Assembly: GCA_020854145.1 (NCBI GenBank)
Contig: JADZFZ010001118.1
Location: forward strand, 14,067 to 78,066
Origin: Deltaproteobacteria bacterium
GTDB taxonomy: Bacteria; Myxococcota_A; Polyangia; Polyangiales; JADZFZ01
DNA length: 64,000 nucleotides
Direction: 5' to 3'
Shown: in pieces, positions 3,388 to 63,999 of the stretch
Layout: the number at the start of each line of letters is the position of its first letter
How positions within the stretch are numbered: the stretch's first letter is position 1
The notes under the pieces: model-generated
Seen by the model: the letters and a program-made list of their open reading frames with translations, nothing else
Told to the model about the DNA's origin: nothing
Databases searched by the model: none
Position numbers and translations under genes: made by a program

Positions 3388-3596
3388 GTGCCGCCTCCGA
3401 CCCGACGCCGGGCGCGATCCTCCTCGAGCTCGGTCTCGGTTGGCTCGGCGACGCTCTTCGTCACCTCCGCGGCGAGCTCGCGGAACGCGGTCGACTTCGC
3501 CGCCTTCGACGCGAGCAGTGCCGGCGCGATGATCTTCGCCGCCTCGATGACGGCGAGAGCGCCGTCGATGAGCAGCTCCATGACCTTGGGGTTCAC
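3384..3596 (-). CDS. Small hypothetical protein (70 aa; alternative ATG at 3581)
   Basis: GTGA overlap with the lipoprotein gene stop. Helical translation VNPKVMELLIDGALAVIEAAKIIAPALLASKAAKSTAFRELAAEV... Confidence 0.4.
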   Translation of the reverse strand: MNPKVMELLIDGALAVIEAAKIIAPALLASKAAKSTAFRELAAEVTKSVAEPTETELEEDRARRRVGGGT

Positions 3597-47711: not shown

Positions 47712-48606
47712 TCTCGCGACGAGCACCGCCGACCGATACGCGCGCGCTCTCGACGATCACATCCTGCCCGCCCTCGGTGACGTCTTCCTCGAGGAGCTCA
47801 CGCGTGCGGATGTCGATCGATGGCTCGCCGGCGTCGGCCAGGAGCCGAGCACGTGCAATGGGTACCTGCGAGTACTTCGCTCCGTGCTCGAGGGCGCCGT
47901 CGCCGACGAGCTCGTGCCCGCAAACGTCGCGACGCGCGTCGCACCGCTGAAGGAACGCACGCGCGACGAGCCGAACGCGCTCACGGCCGACGAGCTCCGG
48001 CGCGTGCTCGAGCACTGGCGCGCGACGCGGCCGGAGCAGTATCCGCTCGTGCTCGCGCTCGCGCTCACGGGAGCGCGGTGGGGCGAGATCACGGCGCTGC
48101 GATGGAGCGACATCGACGCCGCGGCCGCGGAAGGCGCGCTGACGATCCGTCGCGCCCACCATCGCGGAGAGGTGAAGGAACCGAAGACGGGCGTGCGGCG
48201 CATCGTGCCCTTCCCTCGCGTGCTCGCGCGCGTCCTCGAGGAGCACCGCAAGCGGTGCCTCCGGGAGCAGCGACCGGGCTTCGAGGACGGTTGGGTGTTC
48301 ACCTCGAGCGAGGGGACGCTCCTCGACAATGGTCGATTGTCGAAGCCCTGGCGCGAGGTCCTCGGCGAGCTCGAGATCGCGAAGCGAGTCACCATGCACG
48401 GGCTCCGACACACGATGACCGACCTGCTGCGGCACGCGCGCGTCGACCAGGTGACCTCGGCCGCTCTCATCGGCCACACCACCGAGCAAATGCGGCGACG
48501 CTACTCCACCGTTCTGCCCGCCGAGGCGCGCGCTGCCGGCGACCAGGTCGTGAGAATGGCCGGGCTCGCGGGTGGGAGAATCGGTGGGAGCCGGCGACGG
48601 AAATGA
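47443..48606 (+). CDS. int: Tyrosine integrase
   Basis: GGAGAGGA RBS. Motifs ALALTGARWGEITALRWSDID, HGLRHTMTDLL and IGHTTEQMRRRY (R..HxxR..Y). Confidence 0.9.
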   Translation: MGTTTKPNRRIAPGLWQLDTERWLIRVKARSRKTGRIGERLEQFRGTRAEAIATREQWRLELVGDVVQRERQTLEAVAKSWLQLKIARGDLATSTADRYARALDDHILPALGDVFLEELTRADVDRWLAGVGQEPSTCNGYLRVLRSVLEGAVADELVPANVATRVAPLKERTRDEPNALTADELRRVLEHWRATRPEQYPLVLALALTGARWGEITALRWSDIDAAAAEGALTIRRAHHRGEVKEPKTGVRRIVPFPRVLARVLEEHRKRCLREQRPGFEDGWVFTSSEGTLLDNGRLSKPWREVLGELEIAKRVTMHGLRHTMTDLLRHARVDQVTSAALIGHTTEQMRRRYSTVLPAEARAAGDQVVRMAGLAGGRIGGSRRRK

Positions 48607-48610
48607 AAAA

Positions 48611-48648
48611 GGCCCCCGAGACCCTAATGGTCTCGGAGGCCTACTTTT
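48611..48648 (+). terminator. Intrinsic terminator-like hairpin (A-run upstream, T-run downstream: possibly bidirectional)
   Basis: aaaaa-GGCCCCCGAGACC-ctaat-GGTCTCGGAGGCC-tactttt, immediately after the int stop. Confidence 0.6.
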
Positions 48649-48666
48649 CCGGGGCGATCACGCCGG

Positions 48667-48732
48667 AGCGGGAGAAGGGATTTGAACCCTCGACTTCAAC
48701 CTTGGCAAGGTTGAGCCCGTTTCCACTGAGCA
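48667..48732 (-). pseudogene. tRNA-Gly(GCC) remnant lacking the 5' acceptor strand (att-site fragment)
   Basis: Minus strand reads D arm GCTC-AGTGGAAAC-GGGC, anticodon arm CAACC-TTGCCAA-GGTTG, T arm GAGGG-TTCAAAT-CCCTT and 3' acceptor CTCCCGC-T. The 7 nt 5' of the D arm (TGTAGAA) cannot pair. Confidence 0.7.
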
Positions 48733-48751
48733 CTTCTACACATTCTTGAAA

Positions 48752-50068
48752 TCACTTCGCTTCTTGAGCCATGTCGTGCCGGCGCGCCTCGGCGTCTTCG
48801 CCTCGGTGGACACCGGAGTGGACACCTCCGGGGATGAGCCGCAGCGCTTGCTCGCCTGCGGCGCGAGCTTCGTCGGGCCGCACCTTCGAGTACCGCCTCT
48901 GCATCGCGTCGCTCTCGTGCCCGACGATGGACTGTCGGATGAACGAGTCGACTCCCGCCTGCCGCAGCAGGTCGACCATCGTGTGCCGCAGTCCGTGGAA
49001 CGTGACGCGCCGCTCGATGCCCACGGCCTTCAGGACGTCACGCCACTCCTTTGACAGGCTCCCGTTGACGAGCAGCGTGCCTTTCTCCGTCGTGAAGAGG
49101 TAACCCGCCGCGATGCCGGGATGCTCGACGGCAACCATCCACCGCCGGTACTCGCGGAACAGCTCGGAGAGCGCGTGGGGCCATGGAACCGAGCGCCGCC
49201 GCCGCCCCTTGGTGCCCTTGAGCTGACCTCGATAGTGCGCGCGCCGAACCAAGAGCGCCCCCTCTCGCTCCGCCTTGTCGAGATCGGCAGGTTGCAGCGC
49301 GGTGACCTCCCCCCACCGCATACCGGTGACGGCCGCGGCAAGCACTATCAGGAAGCCCTGCACCTTGAGATCACGGCGGTGCCGCCCGTGGAATCGAGGG
49401 TGGAGGTACTCCGGCGCGTCGGGCCACACGAGAGCGCATCGCCGTCGCCACTCCTCGATGATCGCACCCAGCTCCTCGGGCTCGAACGTGTTGTCGCCGT
49501 CGTCGGGGTGCTCGTCCTCGGGGATCGGCTTGACCAGGGCGGCCACGTTGCGGGCGATGAGTTTGTCGCCCACGGCGTCGTTCAGCAGGCTTACCAGCAC
49601 CCGCAGCCAGCCGTTGCACGACGTGGCTTGCCATCGCTCTGCTTCTGCCTTGAACCACGCCACCACGTCGGCCTTCTCGAGCCTGGCTAGGATCATCTGC
49701 CCGAGCGCCGGCCTAATCTGTCCGTCGAGCCCGACCGTGTTCAGGATGTGCTGGTCCAACGCGGTGGTGTAGCGGTCCACCGTGCTCGGCGACCATCTTC
49801 GAAGTGCGAGCCCGGTGCTCATCCACGACCGCGCGAATGACTCCACGGTTTCGCGGCTCTGTACTTTCACCGGCTCGTTTGCCGCCAGTTCGGCCCGCAC
49901 CTTCTCGCGTTCGATCAGCGCCTCCGCCTTCGTTCCGTCGAACTGCTGCCACCGGCTTCCGACGAGGCCGGTCTTCGAGCTGCGCGCCTTCACGCGAAAC
50001 TCGAACTTGTCCTTCTCCAATTGCCAAAGACCCGGCGCTACGCGCCTCTTCTTGCTTGTGCGTGCCAT
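48752..50068 (-). CDS. int: Tyrosine integrase (paralogue of 47443..48606)
   Basis: N-terminus RRVAPGLWQLEKDKFEFRVKARSSKTG versus RRIAPGLWQLDTERWLIRVKARSRKTG in int1. Motifs HGLRHTMVDLL and VGHESDAMQRRY. Confidence 0.9.
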   Translation of the reverse strand: MARTSKKRRVAPGLWQLEKDKFEFRVKARSSKTGLVGSRWQQFDGTKAEALIEREKVRAELAANEPVKVQSRETVESFARSWMSTGLALRRWSPSTVDRYTTALDQHILNTVGLDGQIRPALGQMILARLEKADVVAWFKAEAERWQATSCNGWLRVLVSLLNDAVGDKLIARNVAALVKPIPEDEHPDDGDNTFEPEELGAIIEEWRRRCALVWPDAPEYLHPRFHGRHRRDLKVQGFLIVLAAAVTGMRWGEVTALQPADLDKAEREGALLVRRAHYRGQLKGTKGRRRRSVPWPHALSELFREYRRWMVAVEHPGIAAGYLFTTEKGTLLVNGSLSKEWRDVLKAVGIERRVTFHGLRHTMVDLLRQAGVDSFIRQSIVGHESDAMQRRYSKVRPDEARAAGEQALRLIPGGVHSGVHRGEDAEARRHDMAQEAK

Positions 50069-50294
50069 CGATCAACTCCCCGGCGCGCACGACCGATCGA
50101 GGACGAATCATAGCGTCCAAATCCTCGCGCCGAAACAGCAAGATGCGTCCACGCTTGCCGACCGCTTTGAGGGCGCCGCGGCGAACGGCCATGAGCACGC
50201 CCCCGCGCGATTGGTAGCGGAGGTAGAGCGCCGCCTCGGCCGTCGTCAAGAACGGCGAAGTTGTCGGCGAAGCCTGCGAGTCGGAGAGAAGCAC
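49713..50294 (-). CDS. xis: Excisionase-like HTH protein (paralogue of 47238..47711); tail overlaps int out of frame
   Basis: Translation FLTTAEAALYLRYQSRGGVLMAVRRGALKAVGKRGRILLFRREDLDAMI. The int ATG (50068) lies inside this ORF. Confidence 0.55.
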   Translation of the reverse strand: MLLSDSQASPTTSPFLTTAEAALYLRYQSRGGVLMAVRRGALKAVGKRGRILLFRREDLDAMIRPRSVVRAGELIDGTHKQEEARSAGSLAIGEGQVRVSREGAQLEDRPRRKPVAAVRRNEGGGADRTREGAGRTGGKRAGESTEPRNRGVIRAVVDEHRARTSKMVAEHGGPLHHRVGPAHPEHGRARRTD

Positions 50295-52011: not shown

Positions 52012-52233
52012 ATGACAACAAACGCGAAGCAATGCCAATCCATGCTAAGAGTAGTCGAGGCCGCCGCCCGAACCGGGCTGTCGCCCGCAACTATCTACCG
52101 GATGATGAGGAGTGGACAGCTGCGTGCTTGGACCGTCGCTGGACGAGCGCGTATCGCAGCGGAAGACCTGGACGAGCTGTTCACACCAGTCCTGCGACCC
52201 GCAAACGACGGGCGGAAGGGTGCGGCGGAGTGA
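52012..52233 (+). CDS. AlpA/excisionase-family HTH regulator
   Basis: AAGGAG RBS. Translation MLRVVEAAARTGLSPATIYRMMRSGQLRAWTVAGRARIAAEDLDELF. Confidence 0.7.
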   Translation: MTTNAKQCQSMLRVVEAAARTGLSPATIYRMMRSGQLRAWTVAGRARIAAEDLDELFTPVLRPANDGRKGAAE

Positions 52234-52361: not shown

Positions 52362-53021
52362 ATGTACACCTACTCTGTTTCTCATGTCGAAAATGCGCAA
52401 CCACATGCCAGTCCGGCTCCGACGGCGAACGCCGCCGTGTCGTCCGCCCCGCTCCTGTCCGCAGATCACCTAGCGTTCCTCGCGGCTCGGGGCATCTCGC
52501 CGGACCTCTCGGCGAGCGCCGAGCTGTACTCGGTCGACCCGCAGCAAGCCTCGGAGCTACTGGGGGACACCGTCGCGTCCTGGGGCATCGCCGTCGCATG
52601 CTGGATCTCCGACGCGTCAGGACTGGGGCACCGGGAGATCTGCTGTGTCCGGCTGGACCACGTCGCGCCGGGAGAGGCGCACTGCGCGCGCCCGCGTGGG
52701 AGGCCTCGTCCCACCTACCTCCCGACCGTCGTGACCCGAGAGACATGGCGCGATCCCACTGCTGAGCTGGTCGTGGTCGACTCGCCCATCGCAGCGCTAG
52801 CCCTGGCAGCCGCCGGAATCGCGGCTCTCGACATTGGCGACGACGGTGCGCCGAGCGTCGAGTGGCGCGGGCGGCGCGCCACTCTCCTCTACAGCGGCCG
52901 CCGGGCGTGGAACGCGGACGTCGCTCTGCGTGAGGTGCGGGTCGCCCGCGACCTCCTGGGACGCGGCGCCAAGGTGCTAGTCGCGGAGCTGCCAACCCTG
53001 GAGCGAGGAGGTGCGCTGTGA
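52362..53021 (+). CDS. DUF3854/Toprim-like domain protein (primase-associated)
   Basis: Motifs LSADHLAFLAARGISPD and LVVVDSPIAALALAAAGIAALDIG. 4-nt overlap with the helicase gene. Confidence 0.6.
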   Translation: MYTYSVSHVENAQPHASPAPTANAAVSSAPLLSADHLAFLAARGISPDLSASAELYSVDPQQASELLGDTVASWGIAVACWISDASGLGHREICCVRLDHVAPGEAHCARPRGRPRPTYLPTVVTRETWRDPTAELVVVDSPIAALALAAAGIAALDIGDDGAPSVEWRGRRATLLYSGRRAWNADVALREVRVARDLLGRGAKVLVAELPTLERGGAL

Positions 53022-55267
53022 GTAAGCCCATCCCGTCGCTTCCGGTTGCCTGGTCGCCGCGCGGTCGAGACGATCTCTGCCCCGATGACCTGGTCGCCCA
53101 GTCCAGCGTGGAGCGAGTCCGAGGGCTCCTGGCGGTAGCTCGTCCCGCCACGGCGCGGGAGCACGCCGTGGCGGTCCTCGAGCGCGAAACCGATCACGAG
53201 CGCAGGAGCGCGCGTGCGCGCGAATTGCTAGATGATCTGCCGTACGTGGCAGCGCTCGCCCTCGAGGACCGCGCCGAACGCGAACGCGCCATCAAACTGC
53301 TGACGAAGAGAACGAGCGTCACCAAGGCTGCAGTCGAGGAGCGCCTACAGGCGTTCGAGCGCGCGACCGAGGGCCAAGACTCGGACGAGGGACAGGGACA
53401 GGACGGGAGCACCCACCCCGCCGTCGACAGCGTCAGCCTCGAGGCCGGCTGGCTCTGCGCGACAGGCCACCGCGGGAAACCACTGCGGCTGGCTAACTTC
53501 GACGCGCGGATTGAGGCGGAGGTCACGCACGACGATGGTGTTGACCGTCGGAAGCGCTACCGCATCACAGGCAGCCTCCTCGCGACGGGCGAGGCACTCG
53601 AGGCAGTAGAGGTGCCCGCCGCAGACTTTTCTGCGATGAAATGGGTACACCCAGCCTGGGGCGCACGTGCGGTGGTCGGTGCTGGTCCTGGCGTCGGAGA
53701 CAGGCTGCGCGAGACGATCCAGCTCCGCTCCACCCCGACCCGCGAGACAGTCTACTCGCATCTCGGCTTCCGGAAGGTCGATGGCGTCTGGACCTATCTC
53801 GATGTCGGGGGCAGCGCCTCGAGCGTAGCGGCGCGTGTCGAGGTGCCGCACGATCTACGTCGGTTCCAGCTGATCCGCTCCACTGCTACCGCGGCCGATG
53901 CGCTGCGTGCGTCGATAGGGATCCTGGCGTGCGCACCGCTGGCGATCACTGTCCCGCTGCTCGGTGCTGTGTACGCTGCACTCCTCGCGTCCATCCTCCC
54001 GATCGACGTGGTGCTCTGGCTGTTTGGGCAGTCGGGCACTCGGAAAAGCAGTCTCGCAGCGATCGCACAGGCGCACTACGGCTCGGCGATGATTGACCGC
54101 CGTAACCTCCCGTGCTCCTGGACGTCGACGGCCAACGCGCTCGAGGAGACCACGTTCCTCGCGAAGGACGCGCTGGTCGTGTGTGACGACTATGCGCCGG
54201 CCTCGAGCGCAGCTGCGCGCCAAGAGCAAGACGCGAAGGTGGAGCGCATCGTGAGGAACGCGGGCAACCGGGCTGGACGACAGCGCATGCTCGCAGACCT
54301 GAGCCTCGCACCGGCACATCCACCACGATGTCTCCTCCTCTCGACCGGGGAGGATGCGCCGAGGATTGCCTCGATCCGCGCGCGCACCTTGCTGGTCGAG
54401 GTGCAGGATGTCGACCTGAATGCCCTGTCTGCGGTGCAGCGGTACCCCGAACTCCTCCCGCACGCCCTCGCCGAAGTCGTCGCCTCGATCTGCGGTCACT
54501 ACGATGCGTGGGTGGCGTACGCGCGAAGCCAGCAGGCCGAGGCCACCAGGAACCTATCGGCGCGGCTCGGCCCCAAGGCGCACTCCCGCACCGCGGGCAA
54601 CGTCGCGCAGTTGTACGTCGGCATCCTCTTGGTGAGCGACGTCGCCAACCAGGCGGGTGCTCTCGATGCCGCCGAGAGAGACCGACTCCGGAACGATGCG
54701 TTCGAGGCGCTCGTCGCTGTCGGCCGGCGACAAGCCTCGCTCGCCGAGGACGAGTCGCCCGCGGAGCAGTACGTCCGGACGCTCAGCGGCCTACTTGCAT
54801 CGGGTGCTCTCTGGCTCGCCCCACGGAGCGCGAGCGTGGCGGCGGAGCCTCCCCGCGGCGCCAGGACGGTTGGGTGGCGTGACGACGAGTGGGGGTACGT
54901 GCTGCCTACGGTCGCTTGGGAGGAAGTCAGTCGCGCGCTGAAGGTCAGTGGCGCCGGCCTCCCGGTCTCGCCTCGCATGCTCTATCAGGAGATGCTCGCC
55001 CGAGAATGGCTGGTAGCCGATCCCGACGGCAAGCACCAGGGCCGTGTCCTGAACGTCGGAGGCAAGTCGAAGCGTGTGTTGAAGCTCCCGATCGAGGTGC
55101 TTGAGGGTGCTCCTGGGAGCGACGCCGAACGCATCGAACCCGGGCCGAGTACCACAAGTACCAGTTCCACAGTGGAGGGGAGATCTACCGACCAATGCGA
55201 TGTACGAGACGATGCCGTGAGAACTCGTTGGCAGCGATGCCTTGCGCGAGACTCTCCTACCTCTTGA
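53018..55267 (+). CDS. DUF927-type replicative helicase/initiator
   Basis: 749 aa. Walker A LFGQSGTRKSS and Walker B-like ALVVCDDY. Confidence 0.8.
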   Translation: MSKPIPSLPVAWSPRGRDDLCPDDLVAQSSVERVRGLLAVARPATAREHAVAVLERETDHERRSARARELLDDLPYVAALALEDRAERERAIKLLTKRTSVTKAAVEERLQAFERATEGQDSDEGQGQDGSTHPAVDSVSLEAGWLCATGHRGKPLRLANFDARIEAEVTHDDGVDRRKRYRITGSLLATGEALEAVEVPAADFSAMKWVHPAWGARAVVGAGPGVGDRLRETIQLRSTPTRETVYSHLGFRKVDGVWTYLDVGGSASSVAARVEVPHDLRRFQLIRSTATAADALRASIGILACAPLAITVPLLGAVYAALLASILPIDVVLWLFGQSGTRKSSLAAIAQAHYGSAMIDRRNLPCSWTSTANALEETTFLAKDALVVCDDYAPASSAAARQEQDAKVERIVRNAGNRAGRQRMLADLSLAPAHPPRCLLLSTGEDAPRIASIRARTLLVEVQDVDLNALSAVQRYPELLPHALAEVVASICGHYDAWVAYARSQQAEATRNLSARLGPKAHSRTAGNVAQLYVGILLVSDVANQAGALDAAERDRLRNDAFEALVAVGRRQASLAEDESPAEQYVRTLSGLLASGALWLAPRSASVAAEPPRGARTVGWRDDEWGYVLPTVAWEEVSRALKVSGAGLPVSPRMLYQEMLAREWLVADPDGKHQGRVLNVGGKSKRVLKLPIEVLEGAPGSDAERIEPGPSTTSTSSTVEGRSTDQCDVRDDAVRTRWQRCLARDSPTS

Positions 55268-55270
55268 GAA

Positions 55271-55302
55271 GTGGTAATGAGGTAATGGTAGTAATGGTAA
55301 GA
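55271..55302. repeat. Iteron-like GTAATGG repeats just after the helicase stop
   Basis: The sequence gtGGTAATGaGGTAATGGTAGTAATGGTAAGag carries copies at 55273, 55281 and 55291. It is locally A/T-rich. Confidence 0.9.
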
Positions 55303-55429
55303 GTCCCGACGCGGGGGAACATGCACGAGCGGGTGACCAATTGCCAGGAAAGCCGGGGCTCGGGACACCGTCCCGGCCCGTGACACCCACGACACCTCCC
55401 AACTTGCGTCACAGAGCGCGAGGCGACCG

Positions 55430-55753
55430 ATGGAACCGGAACCACATCAGCACGGAAGCCGCCGATCCAACACGGCGAATGAAACGCTCGGAACATTGGA
55501 TAGGCGTGATCCCCGAATCCTTGGCGCCATGGCGGCGCTTGCCGCAGCTGCAAGGCGACTCACAGCGCTGAAGCGGAAGGGAGCCAAGGCGCAGCACCTC
55601 GTGGACGAAGCCGTCGGGTGCCTTCGCACGTTGGGTGTGCCGTGGCGCCGGATTACCCACGCTGTGGCCCGGGCAACGGGCCAGCCTGCCGACCAGGAAC
55701 TGCGACAGTGCCTACGTAAGCGCGAGTCCCGTCGCCGGCACAGACGCCGCTGA
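55430..55753 (+). CDS. Possible small basic protein (start uncertain)
   Basis: The C-terminal 75 aa are moderately protein-like (MAALAAAARRLTALKRKGAKAQHLVDEAVGCLRTLGVPWRRITHAV). Weak support. Confidence 0.3.
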   Translation: MEPEPHQHGSRRSNTANETLGTLDRRDPRILGAMAALAAAARRLTALKRKGAKAQHLVDEAVGCLRTLGVPWRRITHAVARATGQPADQELRQCLRKRESRRRHRRR

Positions 55754-56057
55754 CAGTGGTGGGATGTGAGCCCGGAGTCGGGGTGGAAGCCGCCGTCTGC
55801 CCGCGTCACCGGGTGCGCGGAGGCCAATAACCGGCTGACCACCCGAGAGGCGTTCCTCGTTCCCCCATCGAGACTATCACATCAAGAGTACGCACTCAGC
55901 GCGAGGAGTCTCATTGCGACGGCGTGGCTCGCATCAGGACGCAAGTCGAACCAGCCAAGAATTCGGTGACAGCCGTCACGCAATTCCACTCGACCCGACC
56001 CGTGGACGCTGGCCAATCGGACGGCGGGGCGATATTGACTCCTTCATAGGAGGCACA

Positions 56058-56222
56058 ATGCCAAGGATTATCCGCCGGAAGACAACGACTGTCGAGTGGT
56101 TCGAGAAGAACGTCGACGAGGACGACGACGTGAGCGAGGCTGAGGCCGACGGCGACGACGACGATCTCGACGACGACGATCTCGACGACGATCTCGAGGA
56201 CGACGAGGAAGACGACGAGTGA
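56058..56222 (+). CDS. Hyper-acidic 54-aa protein
   Basis: AGGAGG RBS 5 nt before ATG 56058. Translation MPRIIRRKTTTVEWFEKNVDEDDDVSEAEADGDDDDLDDDDLDDDLEDDEEDDE. Confidence 0.6.
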   Translation: MPRIIRRKTTTVEWFEKNVDEDDDVSEAEADGDDDDLDDDDLDDDLEDDEEDDE

Positions 56223-56225
56223 TCG

Positions 56226-57023
56226 ATGTTGCCGTGCTTCGCTCGAGCGGGACCGCGCCCGTCGGCCGAGACCGATGAAGTGACGGTGGTGCTAGAGCGC
56301 CTGGACCCCCGATCGTCGAGGCGCACGATGGCGTCGGCGATGGATCTCATCGCCCGAACGCTGAGCAATGATCAGTTGCTTACAAGGCACTCACTCGCGT
56401 GGGCGCGGATCAGCTCGCCGGTCGGCAACTACGTTCTACGTAGGCTTGCAGATCAGGGGTACTCCCGAACTACCGTCGCACGCTGCGCATATGCGCTGCG
56501 TTCCATGCGACGGCTGTACCCCGATCTACCGCCGCTCGAGTTGGAGCCGCTTCCCGTCACGCAGCCGGCAAGCCGTGTCGTTCAGCCCGTCGGCTACGCT
56601 ACGCTTGGCCGGCTGCGTGACGGCTGCGACGACGGGACCCCTCTGGGGTGCCGGGATGGTCTGGTGGTCGAGTTGCTGCGCGAGAAACTGAGCGCAGGCC
56701 AGATCGTCCGCCTCCGACTCGGCGATTGGGAGGACCGGAAACTCGTTGTCCGGCTGCCGAAGTCAGTGCGTCGCATTCGGCTCGCGGACCCGACGATCGA
56801 CGCGATGGAGGCGTGGGTCGCGCACCGCGGCCCGGAGGACGGTCCGCTGATCGCGCCGGTCCGTCGCCACACCGGCGCGCCGGTGCTTCGCGCCCTCCGA
56901 CCGGAGGCGGTCGGCGAGATCCTTCGACGTCGCGCACGCCTCGCCGGGCTCGCGCGGGTGCCCAGGGTGGTAGACGTCCGCGGTCCAGCTCTTCGAGCCG
57001 GTTGCCACGATGGGCAAGGCTAG
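56226..57023 (+). CDS. Tyrosine-recombinase-like protein lacking the C-terminal HxxR/Tyr region
   Basis: SAM-like N-domain (YSRTTVARCAYALRSMRRL) and the first half of the catalytic domain (LSAGQIVRLRLGDWED...VRLPKSVRRIRL). Ends before any HxxR...Y. Confidence 0.6.
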   Translation: MLPCFARAGPRPSAETDEVTVVLERLDPRSSRRTMASAMDLIARTLSNDQLLTRHSLAWARISSPVGNYVLRRLADQGYSRTTVARCAYALRSMRRLYPDLPPLELEPLPVTQPASRVVQPVGYATLGRLRDGCDDGTPLGCRDGLVVELLREKLSAGQIVRLRLGDWEDRKLVVRLPKSVRRIRLADPTIDAMEAWVAHRGPEDGPLIAPVRRHTGAPVLRALRPEAVGEILRRRARLAGLARVPRVVDVRGPALRAGCHDGQG

Positions 57024-57112
57024 GCGCAAGGTCGCGCACAGCCTCGGATGTTTCCTTTCGACGCCAGGGCGTCAAACCCAGGAAGGCGCGGCGCGCCAGA
57101 GCGGAATGCCAA

Positions 57113-57991
57113 ATGACTGCACTGCGTATTGCACTGGTACAGGCGGACGCCGGAGGGGATTGGTCCCTGAGGATAATGCCTACGTATCTGAAGGTTGCCG
57201 CCGACCTCAAGGCTGATGTCGTCGTGTTCCCCGAGACTTTCCCCTTCTGGCGCGACAAGTGTCTGGCCCCGAGCACGGCAGAAGCGCACAAGGCGCTCGC
57301 GTCGGTCGATTGCCCGCCAGGCGTCGCTTTCGTTGCGGGTGGGTACGTGTCCTTCTCTGACGGATTGGGTAATGCGGTGTTCCACGTTCACGGGGGGGTC
57401 GTGTCGTACACATACAGCAAGCGAACGCCGTGGCGAGGCTTGGGGAGGGATGAGAACTCTTGGCCTTACTTGACTATCCCGGGGGTGGACCGCTCCACCA
57501 TTTGGAGCTGGCCATCTGGGTCTTGCGTGCCGCTGATCGGCGCTGACATCTACGGGTCCGAAGACGCCGCCTATGGTGCGCACCTGGACTGGGTGCGACG
57601 TGCGCTCCAATGCGCGGTGCCGTCGAAGCCGGACGTCTTCCTCGTGTCGGCAAGGGCGAACTACCCGAGCGACGGGAGGTGGCCGAGCCGCCTCCTCGAG
57701 GTGGCCGGAAAGGCACAGATTCCGGTCGTGTTCTGTAACGCGGTTGGGCCCGCCGAGCAGGGCTTCGGCGGCGGGGGCAGCGCGGCCTATTTCCCGGACG
57801 GCACGACGGATCCTCCGACTCCGCCGGCTGGTCCCGGGGTCTTCGTTGTCGAAGTTCCGAAGCGAAACTGGGGCTCTCCGGCGGAGGGCTGGTGTTGGCG
57901 CCCGGAATTTCCCAATCCGCAGGATCAGTGGGCGGGCGCTCCTAAGCCACCCCCCCGCGGCAATCGGGAACTGCCCCCCAAACGGCCGTGA
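57113..57991 (+). CDS. Carbon-nitrogen hydrolase (nitrilase superfamily)-like protein, catalytic Cys position apparently Gly
   Basis: Translation MTALRIALVQ...VVVFPETF (Glu), YSKRTPW (Lys). PLIGADIY sits where the family has l-I-C-y-D. Confidence 0.7.
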   Translation: MTALRIALVQADAGGDWSLRIMPTYLKVAADLKADVVVFPETFPFWRDKCLAPSTAEAHKALASVDCPPGVAFVAGGYVSFSDGLGNAVFHVHGGVVSYTYSKRTPWRGLGRDENSWPYLTIPGVDRSTIWSWPSGSCVPLIGADIYGSEDAAYGAHLDWVRRALQCAVPSKPDVFLVSARANYPSDGRWPSRLLEVAGKAQIPVVFCNAVGPAEQGFGGGGSAAYFPDGTTDPPTPPAGPGVFVVEVPKRNWGSPAEGWCWRPEFPNPQDQWAGAPKPPPRGNRELPPKRP

Positions 57992-58257
57992 CGCAGACGG
58001 CGCGCGAGTCAGCGCGCCTGGGTGGCCTCCGCAGATCCGCATGCAAGCCGCTCGATGTCGTCGGGCGGAGGAGCACCTGTCACGGTAAACAGAAGCCTAC
58101 CGTGGTCGTTGCCGAGATCTCTGTCGTTGACGCCGACGAGGAGCTGGCCGTGGAGGTGTGCGAGGAATTCCAGCAGGGCTCCGGCGGGGCGCCGTCCGTT
58201 ACGCTGATCGCCCGCACGCCCGGACCGGAGCCGGGTAATACGACGGCGGAGCCGTGA
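57988..58257 (+). CDS. Small hypothetical protein (89 aa), coupled to the nitrilase-like gene
   Basis: GTG overlaps the upstream TGA. Translation KPTVVVAEISVVDADEELAVEVCEEFQQG. Third-position G/C bias is shared with a mirror minus-strand ORF, so the call is uncertain. Confidence 0.4.
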   Translation: MTQTARESARLGGLRRSACKPLDVVGRRSTCHGKQKPTVVVAEISVVDADEELAVEVCEEFQQGSGGAPSVTLIARTPGPEPGNTTAEP

Positions 58258-58904
58258 GGTGCACCTTGCAGCTCGCGGTGCTCGAGCCCAGCAGGGGCCA
58301 GGGAATCGGGGGAGGCGTAGGAAGCGAATGTCCAGTTCGGCCGCACGGTGTCGAACAACACGGACGACTCCACGGCCGGGGTCGCGCCTGATGAGTCCAA
58401 CGTCATGCGAACGAAGGGCGTGGCCGGTGCGTCGGCGGGCGCTGGAGAGGACGAAAGCGCCGAGAACGCCGAGAGCGCCGAGAAGAGTGGGCCGAGAGCG
58501 GGATGCGCCAGGCCCAGCAGCCCGGCAATCGCCTCGGTCGATTAGGCGTCTCGCTCCGCGGTGGCCGCGGAAGGATCCTGGTTCCAGGTTCCTCCGGACA
58601 AGAGCGTCTCCGAAATACGGGCCGACTCTATGCTGACGAGCACCCAGCGATTCGACATTCCACCGGCGGTAGAGCATCCCGAAGGAACGACGGCCAGCGC
58701 CCATCCGCACGCGCTCCTCACTGCCGCCCCAGTCCCCCCGACGATACCACGACCCGCCGGCCGGCTCAGAAGTGTCAGTGGTGCCGTCGCCGACGATCGT
58801 GTCGGGGTTTCTTCATGCAAGTCGGACGGGCGCCGAGGCGTCCAGCCCGGGCGATCGTTCCCAATCGGCACCCGAGGGTCGCAGGCAGCTCCGACGCAAC
58901 GACC

Positions 58905-59864
58905 TCACTTCTTCTCGTATTCGTCGACCAAGAGACGGGCGGCCGCATCTCCGACTTCGCGGGCGGCATCGTCGTAAAGTTCGGTCGACCGACTGCTCTT
59001 GTGGCGTCCGAAGTGCTGCGCCGTTCGGAGGTTCCCAGTGGCGTTGAGCACTGCCGTAATCGCGGAGTGGCGAAACGAATGCGGGTGCACGACGACGCCG
59101 ACGCGCGCGCCAGCCTCGCGAATGATCTGGAAGATCGCGCTGCCAGTCAGCCGCTTGCCTTTGCTGGCGGAATGAACGCCGCAGAACACCGGTCCGGGCG
59201 CGTCACCGCGGATCCGAAGCCACGCGACGAGCGCCGCCTCGGTCGCGGCAGGCAAGGACCAAGTCTCAAACTCGCCCTCTCGCTGACCTTTGAGGCGCAT
59301 GGACACTTCGTGTTTCGCGAGGTTGACGCGCTCCCGGTCGAGGGACATCACGGAACCCCGTCGGACGCCGAGATCGCTGAGCAGCCTGAGAATCGCGAAA
59401 TTGCGCACGTCCCGCGGCGCGCCGGCAGCCGCTGCTTCTCGAGCCTTGTTGAGCATGTCACGCACGACGCCGAACGCCGGTCCCTTCGTGTTGTAACGGA
59501 CGCGAGTCCCGGGGACTTGCGCCACGTCGAGATGCCAGTCCACGACGCCCAATTCCCTTCCCACGCCGACGACCGAACGGATTGACGCCAATCGCCGATT
59601 GACCGTCGGGGGACTCAACCCGCGCGCGATCATCGCGTCTCGGTAGTCGCCCACGGCGGCGTTGGCGTCGCCACGCGCGAGCGACAAGAGTCGCATGACG
59701 GCTCGTGTCGAATCTCGCTCCCCCATGAAGGCGGCGAAGTGCTGAAGGTCTTTCCGGTAGGCGCTAATCGTCTCGCGGCTCTTCTCAGTCTCGAGGCGCG
59801 CCATGAGTTGCCCCAGCCGCGACTGGGAGTCCGGCGGCTCCCACCGACTGATTGAATCCGCCAT
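58905..59864 (-). CDS. Tyrosine recombinase, XerC/D-like, apparently intact
   Basis: SAM-like N-domain (ETISAYRKDLQHFAAFM). Motifs ILRLLSDLGVRRGSVMSLDRE, HPHSFRHSAIT and GRHKSSRSTELY. Confidence 0.85.
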   Translation of the reverse strand: MADSISRWEPPDSQSRLGQLMARLETEKSRETISAYRKDLQHFAAFMGERDSTRAVMRLLSLARGDANAAVGDYRDAMIARGLSPPTVNRRLASIRSVVGVGRELGVVDWHLDVAQVPGTRVRYNTKGPAFGVVRDMLNKAREAAAAGAPRDVRNFAILRLLSDLGVRRGSVMSLDRERVNLAKHEVSMRLKGQREGEFETWSLPAATEAALVAWLRIRGDAPGPVFCGVHSASKGKRLTGSAIFQIIREAGARVGVVVHPHSFRHSAITAVLNATGNLRTAQHFGRHKSSRSTELYDDAAREVGDAAARLLVDEYEKK

Positions 59865-60312: not shown

Positions 60313-61122
60313 TCAGATGTCGTCTTCGTCACCGCGATCGTCGTCGTCCCTGCCACCCGCGTCGCCGATATCGTCCACATGGCGACGCGGGTACTCGTCA
60401 CGCGGACGAGGGGGCCACTCGTAGACGCCGACTCGGAGCCTGCCAGAAAGGTAGCTGGTGAGCGTGTGCTCGGCGTCTTTGAGCCGTACCTCCCTCGACT
60501 GTCGCGGCTTCGCGTCGATGTCTGCGCGATCTTCTACGATGGCACCATCCGTCGGATGGGGGCACGGCCTGTGAAAGGTGTAGCCGCCGCCCGAAAGCAA
60601 CTCGGCGTAGTTTCCATCGAGGAAGCGATGATATCCGGCATGCTGGAGCACACCATCAGTGACGAGGTGATGTAGCGCCTGGGCCTTCAAGGCGTAGAGC
60701 GACTCCTTCCTTCGCTTCGACGATGACGCGAACTGATGCGCACGCTTGTTGTACTGCCCTCGCGCGGCGTTGCGCCAGCGCTTCGCGGAACGGTTCGCGG
60801 CCCAGAGGGCAGCCAGCAAGTCGACGGTCTTGGCGGGGCTGTGCTTCCGCTGAGCCTTGGGGAGCACCTGATCGTCGCGGTAGACGTGCCACGACCTCGT
60901 CTTGCCGCCGGCCGCGCCGCCAACGTGACCGGTCAGGGTGGCGTGAGGCTCGGCGTCATCGCGAACCCGGCAGCCCTTCTCGCCCCACGCAGTGGCGGAG
61001 AGCGCGGCCTTCGGGTCTCGCGCAAGCAGCTGTCCTTTCAGGGTGATCTGCTCCCCTCCGTACTCGCCTTTGCGTAGCTCCCGAAACCCAGCGCTCTTGG
61101 CAGCTTTGATGGTGCGAAACAT
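60313..61122 (-). CDS. Hypothetical protein (269 aa) with acidic C-terminal tail; distant paralogue of 63070..63999
   Basis: Shares NR-x-AK...(E/S)(I/L)Y-x-LK...L-x-x-L and F-x-(W/F)-H-(Q/R)-P motifs with 63070..63999. Tail DDIGDAGGRDDDDRGDEDDI. Confidence 0.6.
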   Translation of the reverse strand: MFRTIKAAKSAGFRELRKGEYGGEQITLKGQLLARDPKAALSATAWGEKGCRVRDDAEPHATLTGHVGGAAGGKTRSWHVYRDDQVLPKAQRKHSPAKTVDLLAALWAANRSAKRWRNAARGQYNKRAHQFASSSKRRKESLYALKAQALHHLVTDGVLQHAGYHRFLDGNYAELLSGGGYTFHRPCPHPTDGAIVEDRADIDAKPRQSREVRLKDAEHTLTSYLSGRLRVGVYEWPPRPRDEYPRRHVDDIGDAGGRDDDDRGDEDDI

Positions 61123-61673: not shown

Positions 61674-62597
61674 TCATTCAGGCGCGACGGTTGATGCAGC
61701 ACCGGTTCGCCGCCGAACGACTCTTGCGGGAGCGCATCGCGCGTGAATGAGCTTCCAACCATTGCGCGCGCCACTCGCTTCTTCGACAATCGCCCCGAGT
61801 TGATTCAGATCGACGTGGTGTTCGGAGATGCCGGGGTCTCTGCGATACTCGGCCCCAAGGGCGAGGCGTTCCTTCGGCGACCTCGCCCGCTCTACAATTC
61901 GCGAGAACGCCTCGCACGAATAGGCGAATAGTTCTCGTTTTCGGTACTCGATATCGAGCAGCCACTGGCGACGTCGCGTCTCCTTGAGCCCGACCGTGCC
62001 GCGCTTGCAGTTGTGGAAGATGTGGGCGACCTCGTGAACGAGGAAATCAGCGAAGGGATCGTCGTCCTCGAAGTACTCGGCCGACACGTAGCAGGTCGTC
62101 TCCGGATCGTCGTCCTCGAAGTACTCGGCCGACACGTAGCAGGTCGTCTCCTCGGAGAGACCGACAAGTCGTGGCGCGTCGTCGCCAAGCACGTCGGCGC
62201 CAATGCTGACCAGGAAGAGATTCGCGAGGACCCAGCTCGAATGAAGCCAATGGGAATCTCGCAAGAGCCGACCGATGTTCTCCCTGGTGAGGAAGACGAC
62301 CGACTTCTCCAACACGGCCAGCACGGGGTCTTGCTCGGCCCGCGGGAATAGCCCGCGAACCATGGGGGCGACCTTCCGTCGTGTGAGCGCGACGGTGTCG
62401 ATGCTGGGTATCGTGCGCAACCGCGGTGCCGCATCAGCGCGACGTTCCACCTCGGCCGCCAGCGCGTCGGTGAGATCGTCGTGGGCGCGCTTCGAGCCTT
62501 CGAAGAAGCCTCCCGGCCACGCAGCGTGATGCGTCTCGTACTTGCCGGTGCGGATGTACCGCTCGATCTCGTCGGCGATCGTCGGCCGCTGCGTCAT
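61674..62597 (-). CDS. HEXXH-motif protein (putative zinc metallopeptidase), contains a 16-aa perfect tandem duplication
   Basis: Motif FLVHEVAHIFHN. ATG 62597 (MTQRPTIADEIERY) is preferred over the track start 62702, which overlaps the upstream gene. Confidence 0.65.
   Translation of the reverse strand: MTQRPTIADEIERYIRTGKYETHHAAWPGGFFEGSKRAHDDLTDALAAEVERRADAAPRLRTIPSIDTVALTRRKVAPMVRGLFPRAEQDPVLAVLEKSVVFLTRENIGRLLRDSHWLHSSWVLANLFLVSIGADVLGDDAPRLVGLSEETTCYVSAEYFEDDDPETTCYVSAEYFEDDDPFADFLVHEVAHIFHNCKRGTVGLKETRRRQWLLDIEYRKRELFAYSCEAFSRIVERARSPKERLALGAEYRRDPGISEHHVDLNQLGAIVEEASGARNGWKLIHARCAPARVVRRRTGAASTVAPE
62056..62151. repeat. Perfect 48-bp tandem duplication (2 copies)
   Basis: 62056..62103 equals 62104..62151. 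Encodes ETTCYVSAEYFEDDDP twice, just N-terminal of the HEXXH motif. Confidence 0.95.
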
Positions 62598-62677
62598 GGT
62601 CGGCGATGGTACACGCGGCGTGACCCCCCTGCGTAAGCCCCCGTGCGAGACGCTCGGCTCGGCATCACGAAGCCCGC

Positions 62678-63073
62678 TCACCGGCGTCGTCTGGGTCCCC
62701 ATTTGTCACCGTACTGGGGAGGATCAGGAATCCGCTGAACAGGCTCGCTCGCTCGTTCCGCGATGAAAGTGCTGCCGTCGCCATTCGTGATCTTGATGCG
62801 ACCGCGGAGCCTGCCGTCCTTGCCGAGCCTGACGCTGCCCGTGCCGGTCATCTCGTCGTACTCCCAGGCGCCCTCCCAGGTGAACGACGCCCCAGTCTTC
62901 GTGGGTGTCACGTTCACGTACGCGAGCAAGCAATGCATCCGAAGTCGGTCCGCGCCGCCAGTGATGGAGATCATCGCCGGGCCCAGGTCGTCGAGCCCGT
63001 CGTTCACCCAGGTTGAGGTGTCCGTGATTCGCCACCAGCCGCACAGACCCGGATCCAAGCCCTTGCTCGTCAT
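62678..63073 (-). CDS. Small beta-rich hypothetical protein (131 aa)
   Basis: ATGA overlap with the upstream stop. Translation CGWWRITDTSTWVNDG...ASFTWEGAWEYDEMTGTGSVRLGKDGRLRGRIKITNGDGSTFIAER. Confidence 0.55.
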   Translation of the reverse strand: MTSKGLDPGLCGWWRITDTSTWVNDGLDDLGPAMISITGGADRLRMHCLLAYVNVTPTKTGASFTWEGAWEYDEMTGTGSVRLGKDGRLRGRIKITNGDGSTFIAERASEPVQRIPDPPQYGDKWGPRRRR

Positions 63074-63999
63074 GACGGGGGATTGCTGCGCGCCCGACGC
63101 GATTCACCGATGACCCAACCGACGAGGTCCTTCGCCTCCGCGAACCTCCTCCTCGGCATCGGAGTGGGCTTCCCGCCTGGTTCGGGCGTCCACTCCGAAG
63201 ACTCGGTCGGCTGGGGATACTCCCAGCCGACCTCGATCGAGGGCTGGTGCCACGCGAACCGCCGACCATCCACCACGAACCTGAACGCCACGTAGCGCAC
63301 GATTCGAGGTGGAAGGTACCAACCGGTACCTGCGCACCGTCGGCACGACGAATGGCCGGCCGAGCCGTCATCCTCCACCCCGTCGGGATTGCACGCCCGA
63401 CACGACTTGCCGGCCTGATGCTGATCGTGGTGCTTCACCTCCACGACCATCCCTTCCTCGCAGAGGAGGTGGAGCAGACCTGACTTGAGGCTGTAGATCT
63501 CGTCCCGGTGTTCTGGGCGACAACTGGCGTGCTTCGCGTACCGATTCAGCGAGAACATCGCCTCGGCGGCGTCCCGAAGGGCAGTGCGCCAATCGCCGTA
63601 GCGCTCCCGGAACTCTGCTCGACGCTTCTCAGGCTTGAGTGCTCGAGCCTCTTTGGCCCGCCGCGATCGCTCAAGGACCGCGGTTACCTCGGGACCAGCC
63701 ACGAGCGCCGCGATGGGCTCGGGAGGCCAGAGCGGGCATTCGGGACCCGTGAGATGGTTTGGATTCCGATACCAGCTTTCCGGCTTCAGGGCGAGGTCGG
63801 TGGCGAGCTTGCGGAACTGGGACGCTGTCAGGCCCAGCCGTTCGGCCGCTACCGGTGTGGGGAGCAGGAGCTTGCGTCGCTGCCACTGCCGCTCCTCTTC
63901 CGCTTTCTGCGATTCTCGCTCGGCTGCCTTCTGCTCGGCCTTCTGCTTCTCACGTCGGACCTTCTGCTTCTCACGTTCCGCGAGGCTCGCCCGTGCCAT
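63070..63999 (-). CDS. Hypothetical protein (309 aa): Lys/Glu coil, HTH-like segment, CxxC..CxxC insert
   Basis: ATG at 63999; could start beyond the window edge. Motifs AAERLGLTASQFRKLA, SLNRYAKH...EIYSLKSGLLHLL and CRACNPDG...CRRCAGTGWY. Confidence 0.6.
   Translation of the reverse strand: MARASLAEREKQKVRREKQKAEQKAAERESQKAEEERQWQRRKLLLPTPVAAERLGLTASQFRKLATDLALKPESWYRNPNHLTGPECPLWPPEPIAALVAGPEVTAVLERSRRAKEARALKPEKRRAEFRERYGDWRTALRDAAEAMFSLNRYAKHASCRPEHRDEIYSLKSGLLHLLCEEGMVVEVKHHDQHQAGKSCRACNPDGVEDDGSAGHSSCRRCAGTGWYLPPRIVRYVAFRFVVDGRRFAWHQPSIEVGWEYPQPTESSEWTPEPGGKPTPMPRRRFAEAKDLVGWVIGESRRARSNPPS

Follow-up and report, generated by a model that had tools for sequence, protein, structure and literature searches.

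Four neighbouring open reading frames (ORFs) in the cargo region of an integrative element raise the question whether they act together or have merely come to lie side by side. Such a cluster, in which an extremely acidic peptide, a recombinase-like protein, a nitrilase-like protein and a small orphan protein are encoded one after the other, was found in the stretch of DNA analysed here (64,000 nt, referred to as the window). A preliminary description had considered it plausible that they form a novel four-gene operon for defence, anti-defence or interference. We followed up this proposal by examining each ORF, its relatives and their genomic surroundings.

Organization of the gene cluster and its host element

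The four ORFs were read from the sequence as an acidic ORF of 54 aa (56058..56222), a recombinase-like ORF of 265 aa (56226..57023), a nitrilase-like ORF (57113-57991) and ORF4 with 89 aa (57988..58257). As had been claimed, they are co-oriented, all residing on the plus strand in one cluster, and the recombinase-like ORF starts 3 nt past the stop codon of the acidic ORF. The second junction is an 89-nt gap, and at the third one the GTG start of ORF4 overlaps the TGA of the nitrilase-like ORF in a 4-nt GTGA sequence. Hence, two junctions (the 3-nt gap and the 4-nt overlap) agree with the minimal spacing ascribed to the cluster, but the one of 89 nt does not. The antisense ORFs 55976-56368, 57020-58042, 58009-58710 and 58080-58406 were ruled out as genes by their codon usage. 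A scan for promoters and terminators around the cluster revealed nothing informative.

Upstream of the cluster, profile searches identified an integrase gene (PF00589; 48752..50068, minus strand) that abuts a tRNA-Gly gene (48665-48739, minus strand) and a gene for an HTH_17 protein (52012-52233). About 790 bp in front of the cluster, a DUF927-type replicative helicase (PF06048) is encoded on the plus strand at 53018..55267. Distant relatives of this helicase were detected in two small contigs labelled 'Bacteriophage sp.' and in actinobacterial plasmids. On the other side, an intact XerC/D-like tyrosine recombinase gene (58905..59864, minus strand; PF00589 at 2.6e-17, and PF02899) is convergent with the cluster; its product possesses all of the residues R, HxxR, H and Y. 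The element thus contains an integrase, an AlpA/Xis-type HTH protein and a replicative helicase, a trio that is also common to many non-satellite integrative elements. No gene for capsid remodelling or redirection of packaging was recognised when the ORFs were scanned with PHROGs; the element extends past the end of the window. Searches of IMG/VR with the helicase and the recombinase-like ORF did not retrieve relatives of the element, neither the surroundings of the cluster nor a comparison with the tRNA revealed att-like direct repeats, and the tRNA was the sole Rfam match above threshold between 48000 and 64000. The stretch comprising the four ORFs is best explained as cargo of a tRNA-Gly-linked integrative element.

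A degenerate relative of tyrosine recombinases

The product of the recombinase-like ORF turned out to be related to XerC/D-type tyrosine recombinases, but degenerate and truncated at its C-terminus. It did not match any Pfam or NCBIfam profile at E <= 0.1 or any PDB entry by phmmer, and gave a weak PHROGs match to integrase phrog_216 (E 0.062). A search of a database of 5.8 billion protein clusters yielded the protein itself and four homologues (E 2.7e-8 to 6.7e-6), all of which are full-length PF00589 proteins of 315-345 aa; truncated relatives were not among them. Identity to the full-length PF00589 proteins P0002-P0005 was 31% over approximately 250 aa. A further homologue, encoded at L003:7052-7981 and itself matching PF00589 at 4.3e-31, showed 26% identity over 246 aa (pairwise E 5e-11). 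Residues 17-95 align with the part of the L003 protein that matches PF02899, a match which the window protein itself lacks. The conserved region includes the N-terminal core-binding part with the motif 'L.P.S.RRTM' as well as the initial portion of the catalytic domain. It begins at residue 17, whereas the GenBank entry of this gene (MCC7542398.1) starts at M35 (window position 56328), which means that the public annotation is too short and that its start can be corrected.

In the alignment, the protein ends approximately 55 aa short of the RYD motif of the family, just past the place of HxxR. The region of the last His and the nucleophilic Tyr are absent, Arg-I is lost (GLRRSE to KLSAGQ), the Lys hairpin GKGNK is replaced by PK--S, and PHDLRR reads VVDVR, so that the His is gone, with one Arg possibly retained. 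The preliminary description had rightly regarded the protein as a Tyr-less recombinase relative, but it is more degenerate than stated, because Arg-I and the GKGNK hairpin have been lost as well. Out of 70 family-invariant positions only 27 are retained, the losses including non-catalytic ones, and a stretch of seven residues is missing in comparison with full-length relatives. The codon score of 0.07 falls into the lowest tenth of coding windows. Having lost the C-terminal catalytic segment and nearly all catalytic residues, this copy can neither cleave nor rejoin DNA. A continuation in another frame was discounted, as HxxR...Y was not encountered in any frame after position 57023. Nor is the ORF a duplicate of the intact recombinase gene at 58905-59864, with which it shares only 26.6 bits; it is closer to P0002-P0005 and to the L003 protein.

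A nitrilase-like protein lacking the catalytic cysteine

The nitrilase-like ORF consists of a CN hydrolase core (57113..57868) belonging to an unnamed clade of the nitrilase superfamily, and of a Pro-rich tail of 41 codons (57869..57991), both on the plus strand. Against PF00795 the protein scored 24.9 bits (cut-off 23.2), over residues 22-76 only. An exhaustive HMMER search disclosed 39 representatives, the best of them with 44% identity, and the profile of the clade matched CN hydrolases of the PDB with an E-value of 6.7e-13. Neither phmmer against the PDB with the ORF itself nor tblastn of the core against phage or plasmid records gave a match. A word-indexed protein search retrieved no match at all, not even the protein itself. 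Since the neighbouring recombinase-like protein did find itself, the amidase gene is apparently unannotated in the source record. As a single-sequence AlphaFold prediction reached a pLDDT of only 42, a model based on the alignment of 45 sequences was used (pLDDT 80.6, pTM 0.81). The top 50 PDB matches of this model obtained with Foldseek were without exception nitrilase-superfamily proteins (E 1e-12 to 8e-11), and the model possesses the four-layer alpha-beta-beta-alpha sandwich fold.

The alignments confirmed the Glu and Lys contexts and the Gly at the Cys position that had been noticed previously. Glu41 (VVFPETF; 57233-57235) and Lys103 (YSKR; 57419-57421) occupy columns which are invariant in both the 28- and the 45-sequence alignment. 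Codon 143 (57539..57541, plus strand) is GGC for Gly, one base away from TGC. In this column all 71 relatives examined carry a Cys (27/27 and 44/44), a Cys-less relative not occurring among them, and Gly is confined to the window copy. In CN hydrolases of solved structure, this column corresponds to the catalytic Cys (LICeD of 5kha, MICfD of 3ivz). C138, which lies five residues upstream, was rejected as a relocated nucleophile, because it is an ordinary semi-conserved residue of the family (consensus SCVPLICAD). Without the nucleophilic Cys, the thioacyl-enzyme intermediate on which all chemistry of the nitrilase superfamily depends should not form, and the protein has presumably lost its ancestral activity. 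Cys-to-Ala variants of related enzymes serve as inactive forms in the PDB entries 6ypa, 4izs and 5ny7.

The tail is missing from all relatives, its codon score of -0.06 is non-coding-like, and it is disordered in the model (pLDDT 41-56). Probably it is a product of read-through and not a part of the ancestral protein.

Relatives of the amidase gene and their neighbourhoods

The clade comprises small CN hydrolases of approximately 250 aa with the motifs FPE, Y-K-R, PLICAD and GGGGS. PF00795 was matched by 18 of 28 members (best E 1.3e-22). The clade does not bear a name among the Pfam subfamilies, NCBIfam or PADLOC, and none of the 28 members had a PADLOC match. As a whole it is housed by defence islands and mobile elements, not by metabolic operons, and its members stand alone in variable regions. 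A 4-nt overlap with a GmrSD type IV restriction gene was seen for one copy; others lie within an Mrr/AbiJ island, adjoin YjiT/YjiV, or are neighboured by BREX, serine recombinase and ParB genes or by MobA relaxases and HxsD. As nitrilase domains are known effectors of the defence systems DRT1 and UG5, intact clade members are reasonable anti-phage candidates.

The searches placed two of the four proteins of the cluster, the recombinase relative and the nitrilase-superfamily protein, whereas the acidic ORF and ORF4 were left without a homologue. PADLOC-DB 2.0 did not give a match for the four ORFs or six neighbouring ones. When other genomes were inspected for synteny, solely the adjacency of the recombinase and amidase genes recurred. 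In L003 an intact amidase relative is preceded, at a distance of 26 nt, by a complete PF00589 recombinase gene of the same subfamily as that of the cluster, and the same order exists in L004, L026, L028 and L030, all of one methanotroph island lineage in which both genes are intact. The complete four-gene composition was seen nowhere else in approximately 46 loci. Both recognisable proteins of the cluster are singletons in a disabled form, and the closest relatives of each gene do not neighbour the other. Together with the lack of PADLOC matches and of significant PHROGs ones, this leaves the proposed operon for defence, anti-defence or interference unsupported.

Decay of the amidase gene is a recurrent event. 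Only the first 100 codons are left in L031, L033, L034 and L035, and in L025 the gene is frameshifted.

The cluster as probable decaying cargo

Taken together, we give somewhat better than even chances to the locus being a decaying cargo remnant with dead copies of a recombinase and an amidase gene, accompanied by orphan ORFs. The two copies would be relics of a gene pair, whose intact version persists in the mobile islands of methanotrophs. The recombinase would have been inactivated long ago and the amidase recently, neither relic would still do its ancestral job, and the pair would be on its way out. Because the nearest relatives of the two genes are not each other's neighbours and adjacency was seen in only one other lineage, an ancestral pair is suggested by these comparisons, not more.

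The stop codon of the amidase gene was apparently lost as well, which may have generated the disordered tail of about 40 residues running into ORF4. This bears on the earlier statement that ORF4 is coupled by the GTGA overlap. The overlap exists, but as the tail is non-coding-like, disordered and absent from relatives, the coupling may be an accident of read-through. ORF4 itself is an orphan. It did not match Pfam, NCBIfam, PHROGs, PADLOC, the PDB (phmmer) or plasmids, and a counterpart was not present beside the amidase relatives in approximately 46 loci. Its codon score of 0.195, which was reached by 3.7% of off-frame windows, suggests that it is probably translated; ORFs antisense to it showed negative scores.

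Several observations do not fit decay easily. The reading frames are free of stops and frameshifts over both homologous spans (amidase 252 aa, recombinase-like 246 aa). The amidase retains 17 of 18 invariant residues, scores 190 bits on the family HMM compared to 202-285 bits of the 38 other members, and its codon usage is like that of control genes. Moreover, the 3-nt gap between the acidic and the recombinase-like ORF resembles translational coupling. Given an amidase which is otherwise typical of its family, decay would imply that inactivation took place very recently, unless a non-catalytic role has preserved the protein.

The acidic ORF and alternative explanations

The acidic ORF encodes a basic N-terminus (MPRIIRRKTTTVEWFEK) followed by an acidic tail of 36 residues. 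Asp and Glu make up 29 of the 54 residues and 27 of the last 36, in agreement with the initial characterization, and the net charge is approximately -24. Whether this ORF is a gene at all can be questioned. At the DNA level it forms, in addition, a tandem repeat based on GAC, with periods of 12, 15 and 27 over 56110-56219, and in such DNA all six frames are open, so that the openness of the ORF is no evidence of coding. A Shine-Dalgarno-like AGGAGG hexamer (56048..56053, plus strand) precedes the ATG start (56058) by 4 nt. The strong ribosome binding site reported before is thus well placed, but taken by itself it is weak evidence, because the window contains 36 copies of AGGAGG, 11 of which are followed, after 3-9 nt, by an ATG or GTG. 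Homologues were not detected in Pfam, NCBIfam, PHROGs, PADLOC or by tblastn against phages. About 46 fetched loci with amidase relatives contained neither a homologue nor any ORF with at least 70% Asp/Glu over 25 residues. Upstream, the region 55268-56057 between the helicase and the acidic ORF contains no convincing gene. The repeat might accordingly be a non-coding sequence, a simple repeat or iteron-like sites downstream of the helicase gene, an explanation that we regard as unlikely. What argues for a gene is codon usage. GC contents at the three codon positions are 0.75/0.24/0.82, and the codon score amounts to 0.6 bits/codon for the entire ORF. In the non-repetitive first 20 codons it is 0.41, a value reached by 1.5% of off-frame windows. 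Furthermore, the repeat copies are 63-83% alike and keep a 3-nt phase, which fits a coding Asp/Glu run and not iterons. Judged by codon usage, the acidic ORF is probably translated. Together with ORF4 it is best explained as a lineage-specific orphan, whose juxtaposition with the relics is incidental and not the sign of a conserved operon.

Alternatively, the dead enzymes may have been exapted to a working non-catalytic module. The truncated recombinase would bind or bend DNA in a sequence-specific manner, the amidase would act as a ligand-binding pseudoenzyme or decoy, and the polyanionic peptide would modulate one of them, for instance by covering the surface with which the recombinase relative contacts DNA. 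This reading draws on the features listed above as being at odds with decay (the intact frames over the homologous spans, the invariant residues of the amidase and the 3-nt spacing), as well as on the conserved amidase fold and the positive codon scores of all four ORFs. There is also a precedent in TnsF, an inactivated tyrosine recombinase that selects targets for Tn7 (PMC10293859). However, a conserved truncated or Cys-less family does not exist among the relatives, the composition is unique to the window, the recombinase copy has given up most of its invariant positions, and the tail of the amidase resembles read-through. For these reasons we consider such a module rather improbable.

Slightly less credit can be given to the assumption that the amidase is really active, Gly143 being due to a faulty consensus or assembly, or to a variant carried by a minority strain, in an ordinary clade member. 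A single base separates GGC from TGC, the remainder of the protein is family-typical, and the source is a 93,982-bp contig of a metagenome-assembled genome ('Deltaproteobacteria bacterium'). On the other hand, a consensus that is wrong by a single base is uncommon in assembled contigs, and the aberrant tail of 40 residues and the degenerate neighbour both fit decay.

It is more doubtful still that the acidic peptide alone, independently of its neighbours, serves the element as an anti-restriction or anti-defence DNA mimic. Its charge and its location among the cargo of this integrative element are compatible with such a role, and the acidic mimics Ocr and ArdA are known anti-restriction proteins. 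Known mimics are, however, folded and copy the geometry of DNA by their charge pattern (PMC2731889, PMC3439906), whereas a run of 36 nearly pure Asp/Glu residues is expected from its composition to be disordered, and neither sequence similarity to known mimics nor conservation was found. Least credible of all, and very improbable in our view, is the notion that the four ORFs constitute a functional non-enzymatic module in which a Tyr-less DNA-binding protein, regulated by the co-translated polyanionic peptide, stands beside a nucleophile-null amidase that serves as ligand sensor or decoy and derives from a CN-hydrolase clade which would itself be a mobile-island effector of defence or anti-defence.

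Decaying cargo remains the preferred explanation, and as such the locus itself is of little import; it illustrates how cargo decays inside an integrative element. The intact amidase clade is a by-product worth following, for which the window copy provides a natural Cys-null control.

Comparison with known systems

In its fold, the nitrilase-like protein resembles amidases of the nitrilase superfamily (PF00795), e.g., those of Nesterenkonia AN1 (3HKX), PH0642 of Pyrococcus horikoshii (1J31/6YPA) and the glutaminase domain of NAD+ synthetase (5KHA), with TM values of 0.6-0.68. Its Glu and Lys even occupy almost the same numbering as in the Nesterenkonia enzyme (E41/C145). Unlike these proteins, the window copy has a Gly for the Cys and an extra tail of 40 residues, and its clade possesses a GGGGS motif of its own. 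The recombinase-like protein is homologous over approximately 245 residues to XerC/D-type island recombinases (PF00589 and PF02899; P0002-P0005, L003:7052-7981), and in islands of the L003 type the recombinase gene occupies the same position as in the window, directly upstream of the amidase gene. In contrast to these enzymes, the window copy is approximately 55 aa shorter and lacks Arg-I, the Lys hairpin, His-II, His-III and Tyr.

With TnsF of the Tn6022-like Tn7 transposons (PMC10293859), the recombinase relative shares the loss of the catalytic pocket and the carriage by a mobile element. TnsF, however, forms a conserved family, is equipped with zinc fingers and is accompanied by Tn7 partner genes, while a single degenerate copy without Tn7 genes nearby is present here. 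The acidic peptide has its extreme negative charge and its mobile-element carriage in common with Ocr and ArdA, but it is without homology to them, has less than half their size and consists of one low-complexity run instead of a patterned folded surface. Finally, the defence reverse transcriptases DRT1 and UG5/DRT11 contain nitrilase effector domains, demonstrating that CN-hydrolase domains can be anti-phage effectors, and a Cys-to-Ala exchange in UG5 (C876A) abolished defence (PMC13275509, PMC13436386). Like these domains, the amidase clade is found in defence neighbourhoods. At the window locus no reverse transcriptase is encoded, and its amidase corresponds to a natural equivalent of the UG5 null mutant.

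Genetic environment of the cluster

The G+C content of the window amounts to about 65-74%. It is slightly lower (0.63-0.68) in the region harboring the cluster, which begins at a tRNA-Gly gene (48665-48739, - strand). This region carries the genes of an integrase (48752-50068, -) and of a DUF927 helicase (53018-55267); HTH_17 proteins are encoded twice, within 49713-50294 (-) and at 52012-52233 (+), and the ORF 52362-53021 matched no family. On the far side of the cluster and convergent with it, an intact XerC/D-like recombinase gene is located (58905-59864, -). The region represents an integrative element equipped with a replication module of its own; the label "satellite" used in the preliminary description is a guess. 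The helicase gene and the first ORF of the cluster are separated by approximately 790 bp (55268-56057) showing the lowest G+C content of the neighborhood (0.634). Neither an ORF with coding-like codon usage nor an Rfam match was found in this stretch, which could be the site of the element's origin or promoters.

A second integrase gene (47443-48606, +), the product of which is 43% identical to that of the first one, converges on the same tRNA-Gly(GCC) from the other side, and behind each of the two (47443-50294) an HTH_17 excisionase-like ORF is situated. This arrangement suggests two related integrative elements flanking one tRNA gene, the right-hand element occupying the 5′ side of the tRNA gene, an unusual placement. 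The left-hand element encodes a ParB-like protein (44032-45771; ParB_N and HTH_ParB) ending in a tandem Lys/Ala/Pro-rich repeat, (TPAKKSTAKAAKK)n. Downstream of the cluster, the ORF 61674-62702 (-) contains a perfect 48-bp tandem duplication (62056-62151) that doubles the peptide ETTCYVSAEYFEDDDP. The products of two ORFs of the element, 60313-61122 (-), which gave a weak YkyB-like match, and 63070-63999 (-), have a short similar segment with the motif Y-LK---LH-L---G (E 3e-4; 28% identity over 50 aa) and may be distant paralogues.

Coding potential of the four ORFs

Since long ORFs arise in every frame of such G+C-rich DNA, codon usage was scored with a model built from 19 reliably identified genes of the window, the wrong frames of which provided the background. 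The ORF encoding an acidic 54-aa peptide (56058-56222) scored 0.61 bits per codon as a whole and 0.41 bits for its first 20 non-repetitive codons, values reached by 0.1% and 1.5% of the off-frame windows, respectively. For the core of the nitrilase-like (amidase) ORF (57113-57868) 0.19 bits (2.5%) and for ORF4 (57988-58257; 89 aa) 0.195 bits (3.7%) were determined, followed by the recombinase-like ORF (56226-57023) with 0.07 bits (9.7%) and the 3′-terminal 41 codons of the amidase ORF (57869-57991) with -0.06 bits (22%). The latter two were outscored by about 90% of length-matched coding windows. All antisense ORF candidates gave negative scores. The ORF calls on the + strand are thus upheld, being weak for the recombinase-like ORF and for the tail of the amidase ORF.

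The AGGAGG ribosome binding site emphasized for the acidic ORF is indeed present, but not rare, as the window contains 36 such sequences, 11 of them followed by a start codon. The DNA of the acidic run is a GAC-based tandem repeat, in which every frame is open; the ORF may encode a disordered polyanionic peptide, or else it may be non-coding repeat DNA. The likeness of the peptide to Ocr and ArdA is one of charge alone.

The recombinase-like protein

A stretch of 231 residues in the product of the second ORF is identical to the GenBank protein MCC7542398.1 (locus tag IT379_39635), which is encoded on a 93,982-bp contig of a metagenome-assembled "Deltaproteobacteria bacterium". The product did not match any Pfam or NCBIfam family, and among 5.8 billion clusters only the protein itself and four full-length PF00589 recombinases (315-345 aa, approximately 31% identity) were recovered. 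As homology to full-length recombinases already sets in at residue 17 and the GenBank entry starts only at M35 (window position 56328), 56226 is the better start, and the annotated protein, which omits 56226-56327, is probably 34 codons too short.

The protein was aligned with ten full-length relatives. GLRRSE is changed to KLSAGQ, by which Arg-I is lost, GKGNK is replaced by PK--S, a stretch of seven residues is deleted and PHDLRR reads VVDVR. Fifteen residues past VVDVR the ORF stops, about 55 residues short of the usual C-terminus, and therefore lacks the second His as well as the Tyr; none of the other frames contains a continuation. Of 70 positions invariant in the relatives, the protein kept 27. 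Its origin as a copy of the neighboring intact recombinase was rejected by comparison.

The nitrilase-like protein

With the amidase ORF, Pfam gave only a marginal CN_hydrolase match (residues 22-76) and a word-indexed protein search no match, while 39 relatives with a top identity of 44% emerged when 1.84 billion representatives were scanned exhaustively with HMMER. Their alignment revealed a compact clade, the members of which comprise about 250 residues and share the invariant motifs FPE, Y-K-R, P-L-I-C-A-D and GGGGS; 18 of 28 members matched PF00795. The clade profile detected solved CN hydrolases (E 6.7e-13), PLICaD being aligned to the catalytic Cys of 5kha (LICeD) and 3ivz (MICfD). AlphaFold, supplied with an alignment of 45 sequences, predicted residues 1-254 with a pLDDT of 80.6 and a pTM of 0.81 and residues 255-292 as disordered; the top 50 PDB matches of the model were all nitrilase-superfamily enzymes.

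In the nucleophile column, all relatives (27 and 44 in two sets) contain Cys and the window protein alone Gly (Gly143, 57539-57541). The Gly noted at the catalytic Cys position was therefore correctly recognized. The Cys located five positions before it is nothing unusual in the clade (consensus SCVPLICAD). The GGC codon is a single base away from TGC. Seventeen of 18 invariant columns are kept, the nucleophile being the sole loss, and a family HMM from which the protein was excluded gave it 190 bits, just below the 202-285 bits of 38 independent members; with Cys restored, the score rises by 8 bits. The exchange looks like a single recent hit on a gene that is otherwise well preserved, or else like an artifact of base calling or strain variation in the metagenome-assembled genome.

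No self-match was obtained for the ORF 57113-57991 in the protein search by which the GenBank protein of its neighbor had been retrieved. The ORF seems to lack a protein annotation in the public entry; it may have been classed as a pseudogene or overlooked.

Conservation of the gene order

Thirty-six loci encoding amidase relatives were fetched from genomes, metagenomes and IMG/VR, and ten more were obtained by exact look-ups. When all four window proteins were compared with the fetched loci by tblastn, no counterparts of the acidic ORF and ORF4 were found, and a scan for ORFs with at least 70% Asp/Glu over 25 residues returned the window's own only. The proposed four-gene operon with a role in defence, anti-defence or interference was not borne out, though the underlying sequence observation was confirmed.

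A recombinase gene immediately upstream of the amidase gene occurs in one methanotroph-type island lineage (L003, L004, L026, L028, L030, L031, L033-35) with the order DUF2787, RadC, PcfJ, recombinase, amidase, small protein. The island recombinase has the full length, matches PF00589 at 4e-31 and is a member of the subfamily that also includes the relic in the window (E 5e-11; common N-terminal L.P.S.RRTM motif). An ancestral recombinase-amidase module is plausible but not more than that, because the nearest relatives of either window gene lack the partner gene and recombinases are commonplace in islands anyway. In L031, L033, L034 and L035 the amidase gene is cut to its first 100 codons (about 300 nt) and in L025 it is frameshifted (3395-3992), indicating that decay of this gene is recurrent. 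The small conserved protein of the islands (about 100 aa; L003 8852-9163, L004 5802-6092, L034 4480-4773) carries the motif PLF-LGQ-VATPGA ... GDWGDL and exhibited neither a Pfam match nor similarity to ORF4 of the window.

The recombinase-like and the nitrilase-like protein are degenerate members of two known superfamilies. We lean, by a modest degree, towards the pair being a decaying remnant within the cargo of the element, since both disabled forms are singletons, the recombinase is heavily eroded, the amidase has a probable read-through tail and the flanking orphan ORFs are not conserved along with them. The main alternative is that the disabled proteins may have been exapted into a non-catalytic module. 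In its favor are the uninterrupted reading frames, an amidase that is almost perfectly preserved and the gap of only 3 nt between the acidic and the recombinase-like ORF; it has a precedent in TnsF, an inactivated recombinase serving as target selector of Tn7 (PMC10293859). More trivially, Gly143 may not be real in the population.

Genomic context of the amidase clade

The useful lead is the amidase clade itself, an uncharacterized group of CN hydrolases carried by mobile elements and defence islands. The gene of P0010, an intact member (L043 466-2855, Logan SRR13723387_18407), and a type IV restriction gene for GmrSD (DUF262/DUF1524) overlap by 4 nt at the end of the latter, and the two look like an operon. 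P0013 adjoins BrxR/BrxA/BrxB, a serine recombinase and two ParB/RepB genes, P0008 resides in an island with Mrr_cat, AbiJ_NTD3 and DUF429, P0083 adjoins YjiT/YjiV-like genes, and P0020 lies among MobA/MobL relaxases, an IS481 transposase and HxsD/radical-SAM genes. In two IMG/VR loci (L037, L038) an integrase gene is located about 3 kb upstream. The surroundings of P0045 and several further members are unremarkable. PADLOC models did not match any of 28 clade members and NCBIfam gave generic amidohydrolase matches only.

Nitrilase domains are established effectors of the DRT1 and UG5/DRT11 defence systems, in which a Cys-to-Ala exchange abolishes protection (PMC13275509, PMC13436386). A defence-related or anti-defence role of the intact clade is a fair hypothesis, the window copy representing a natural null.
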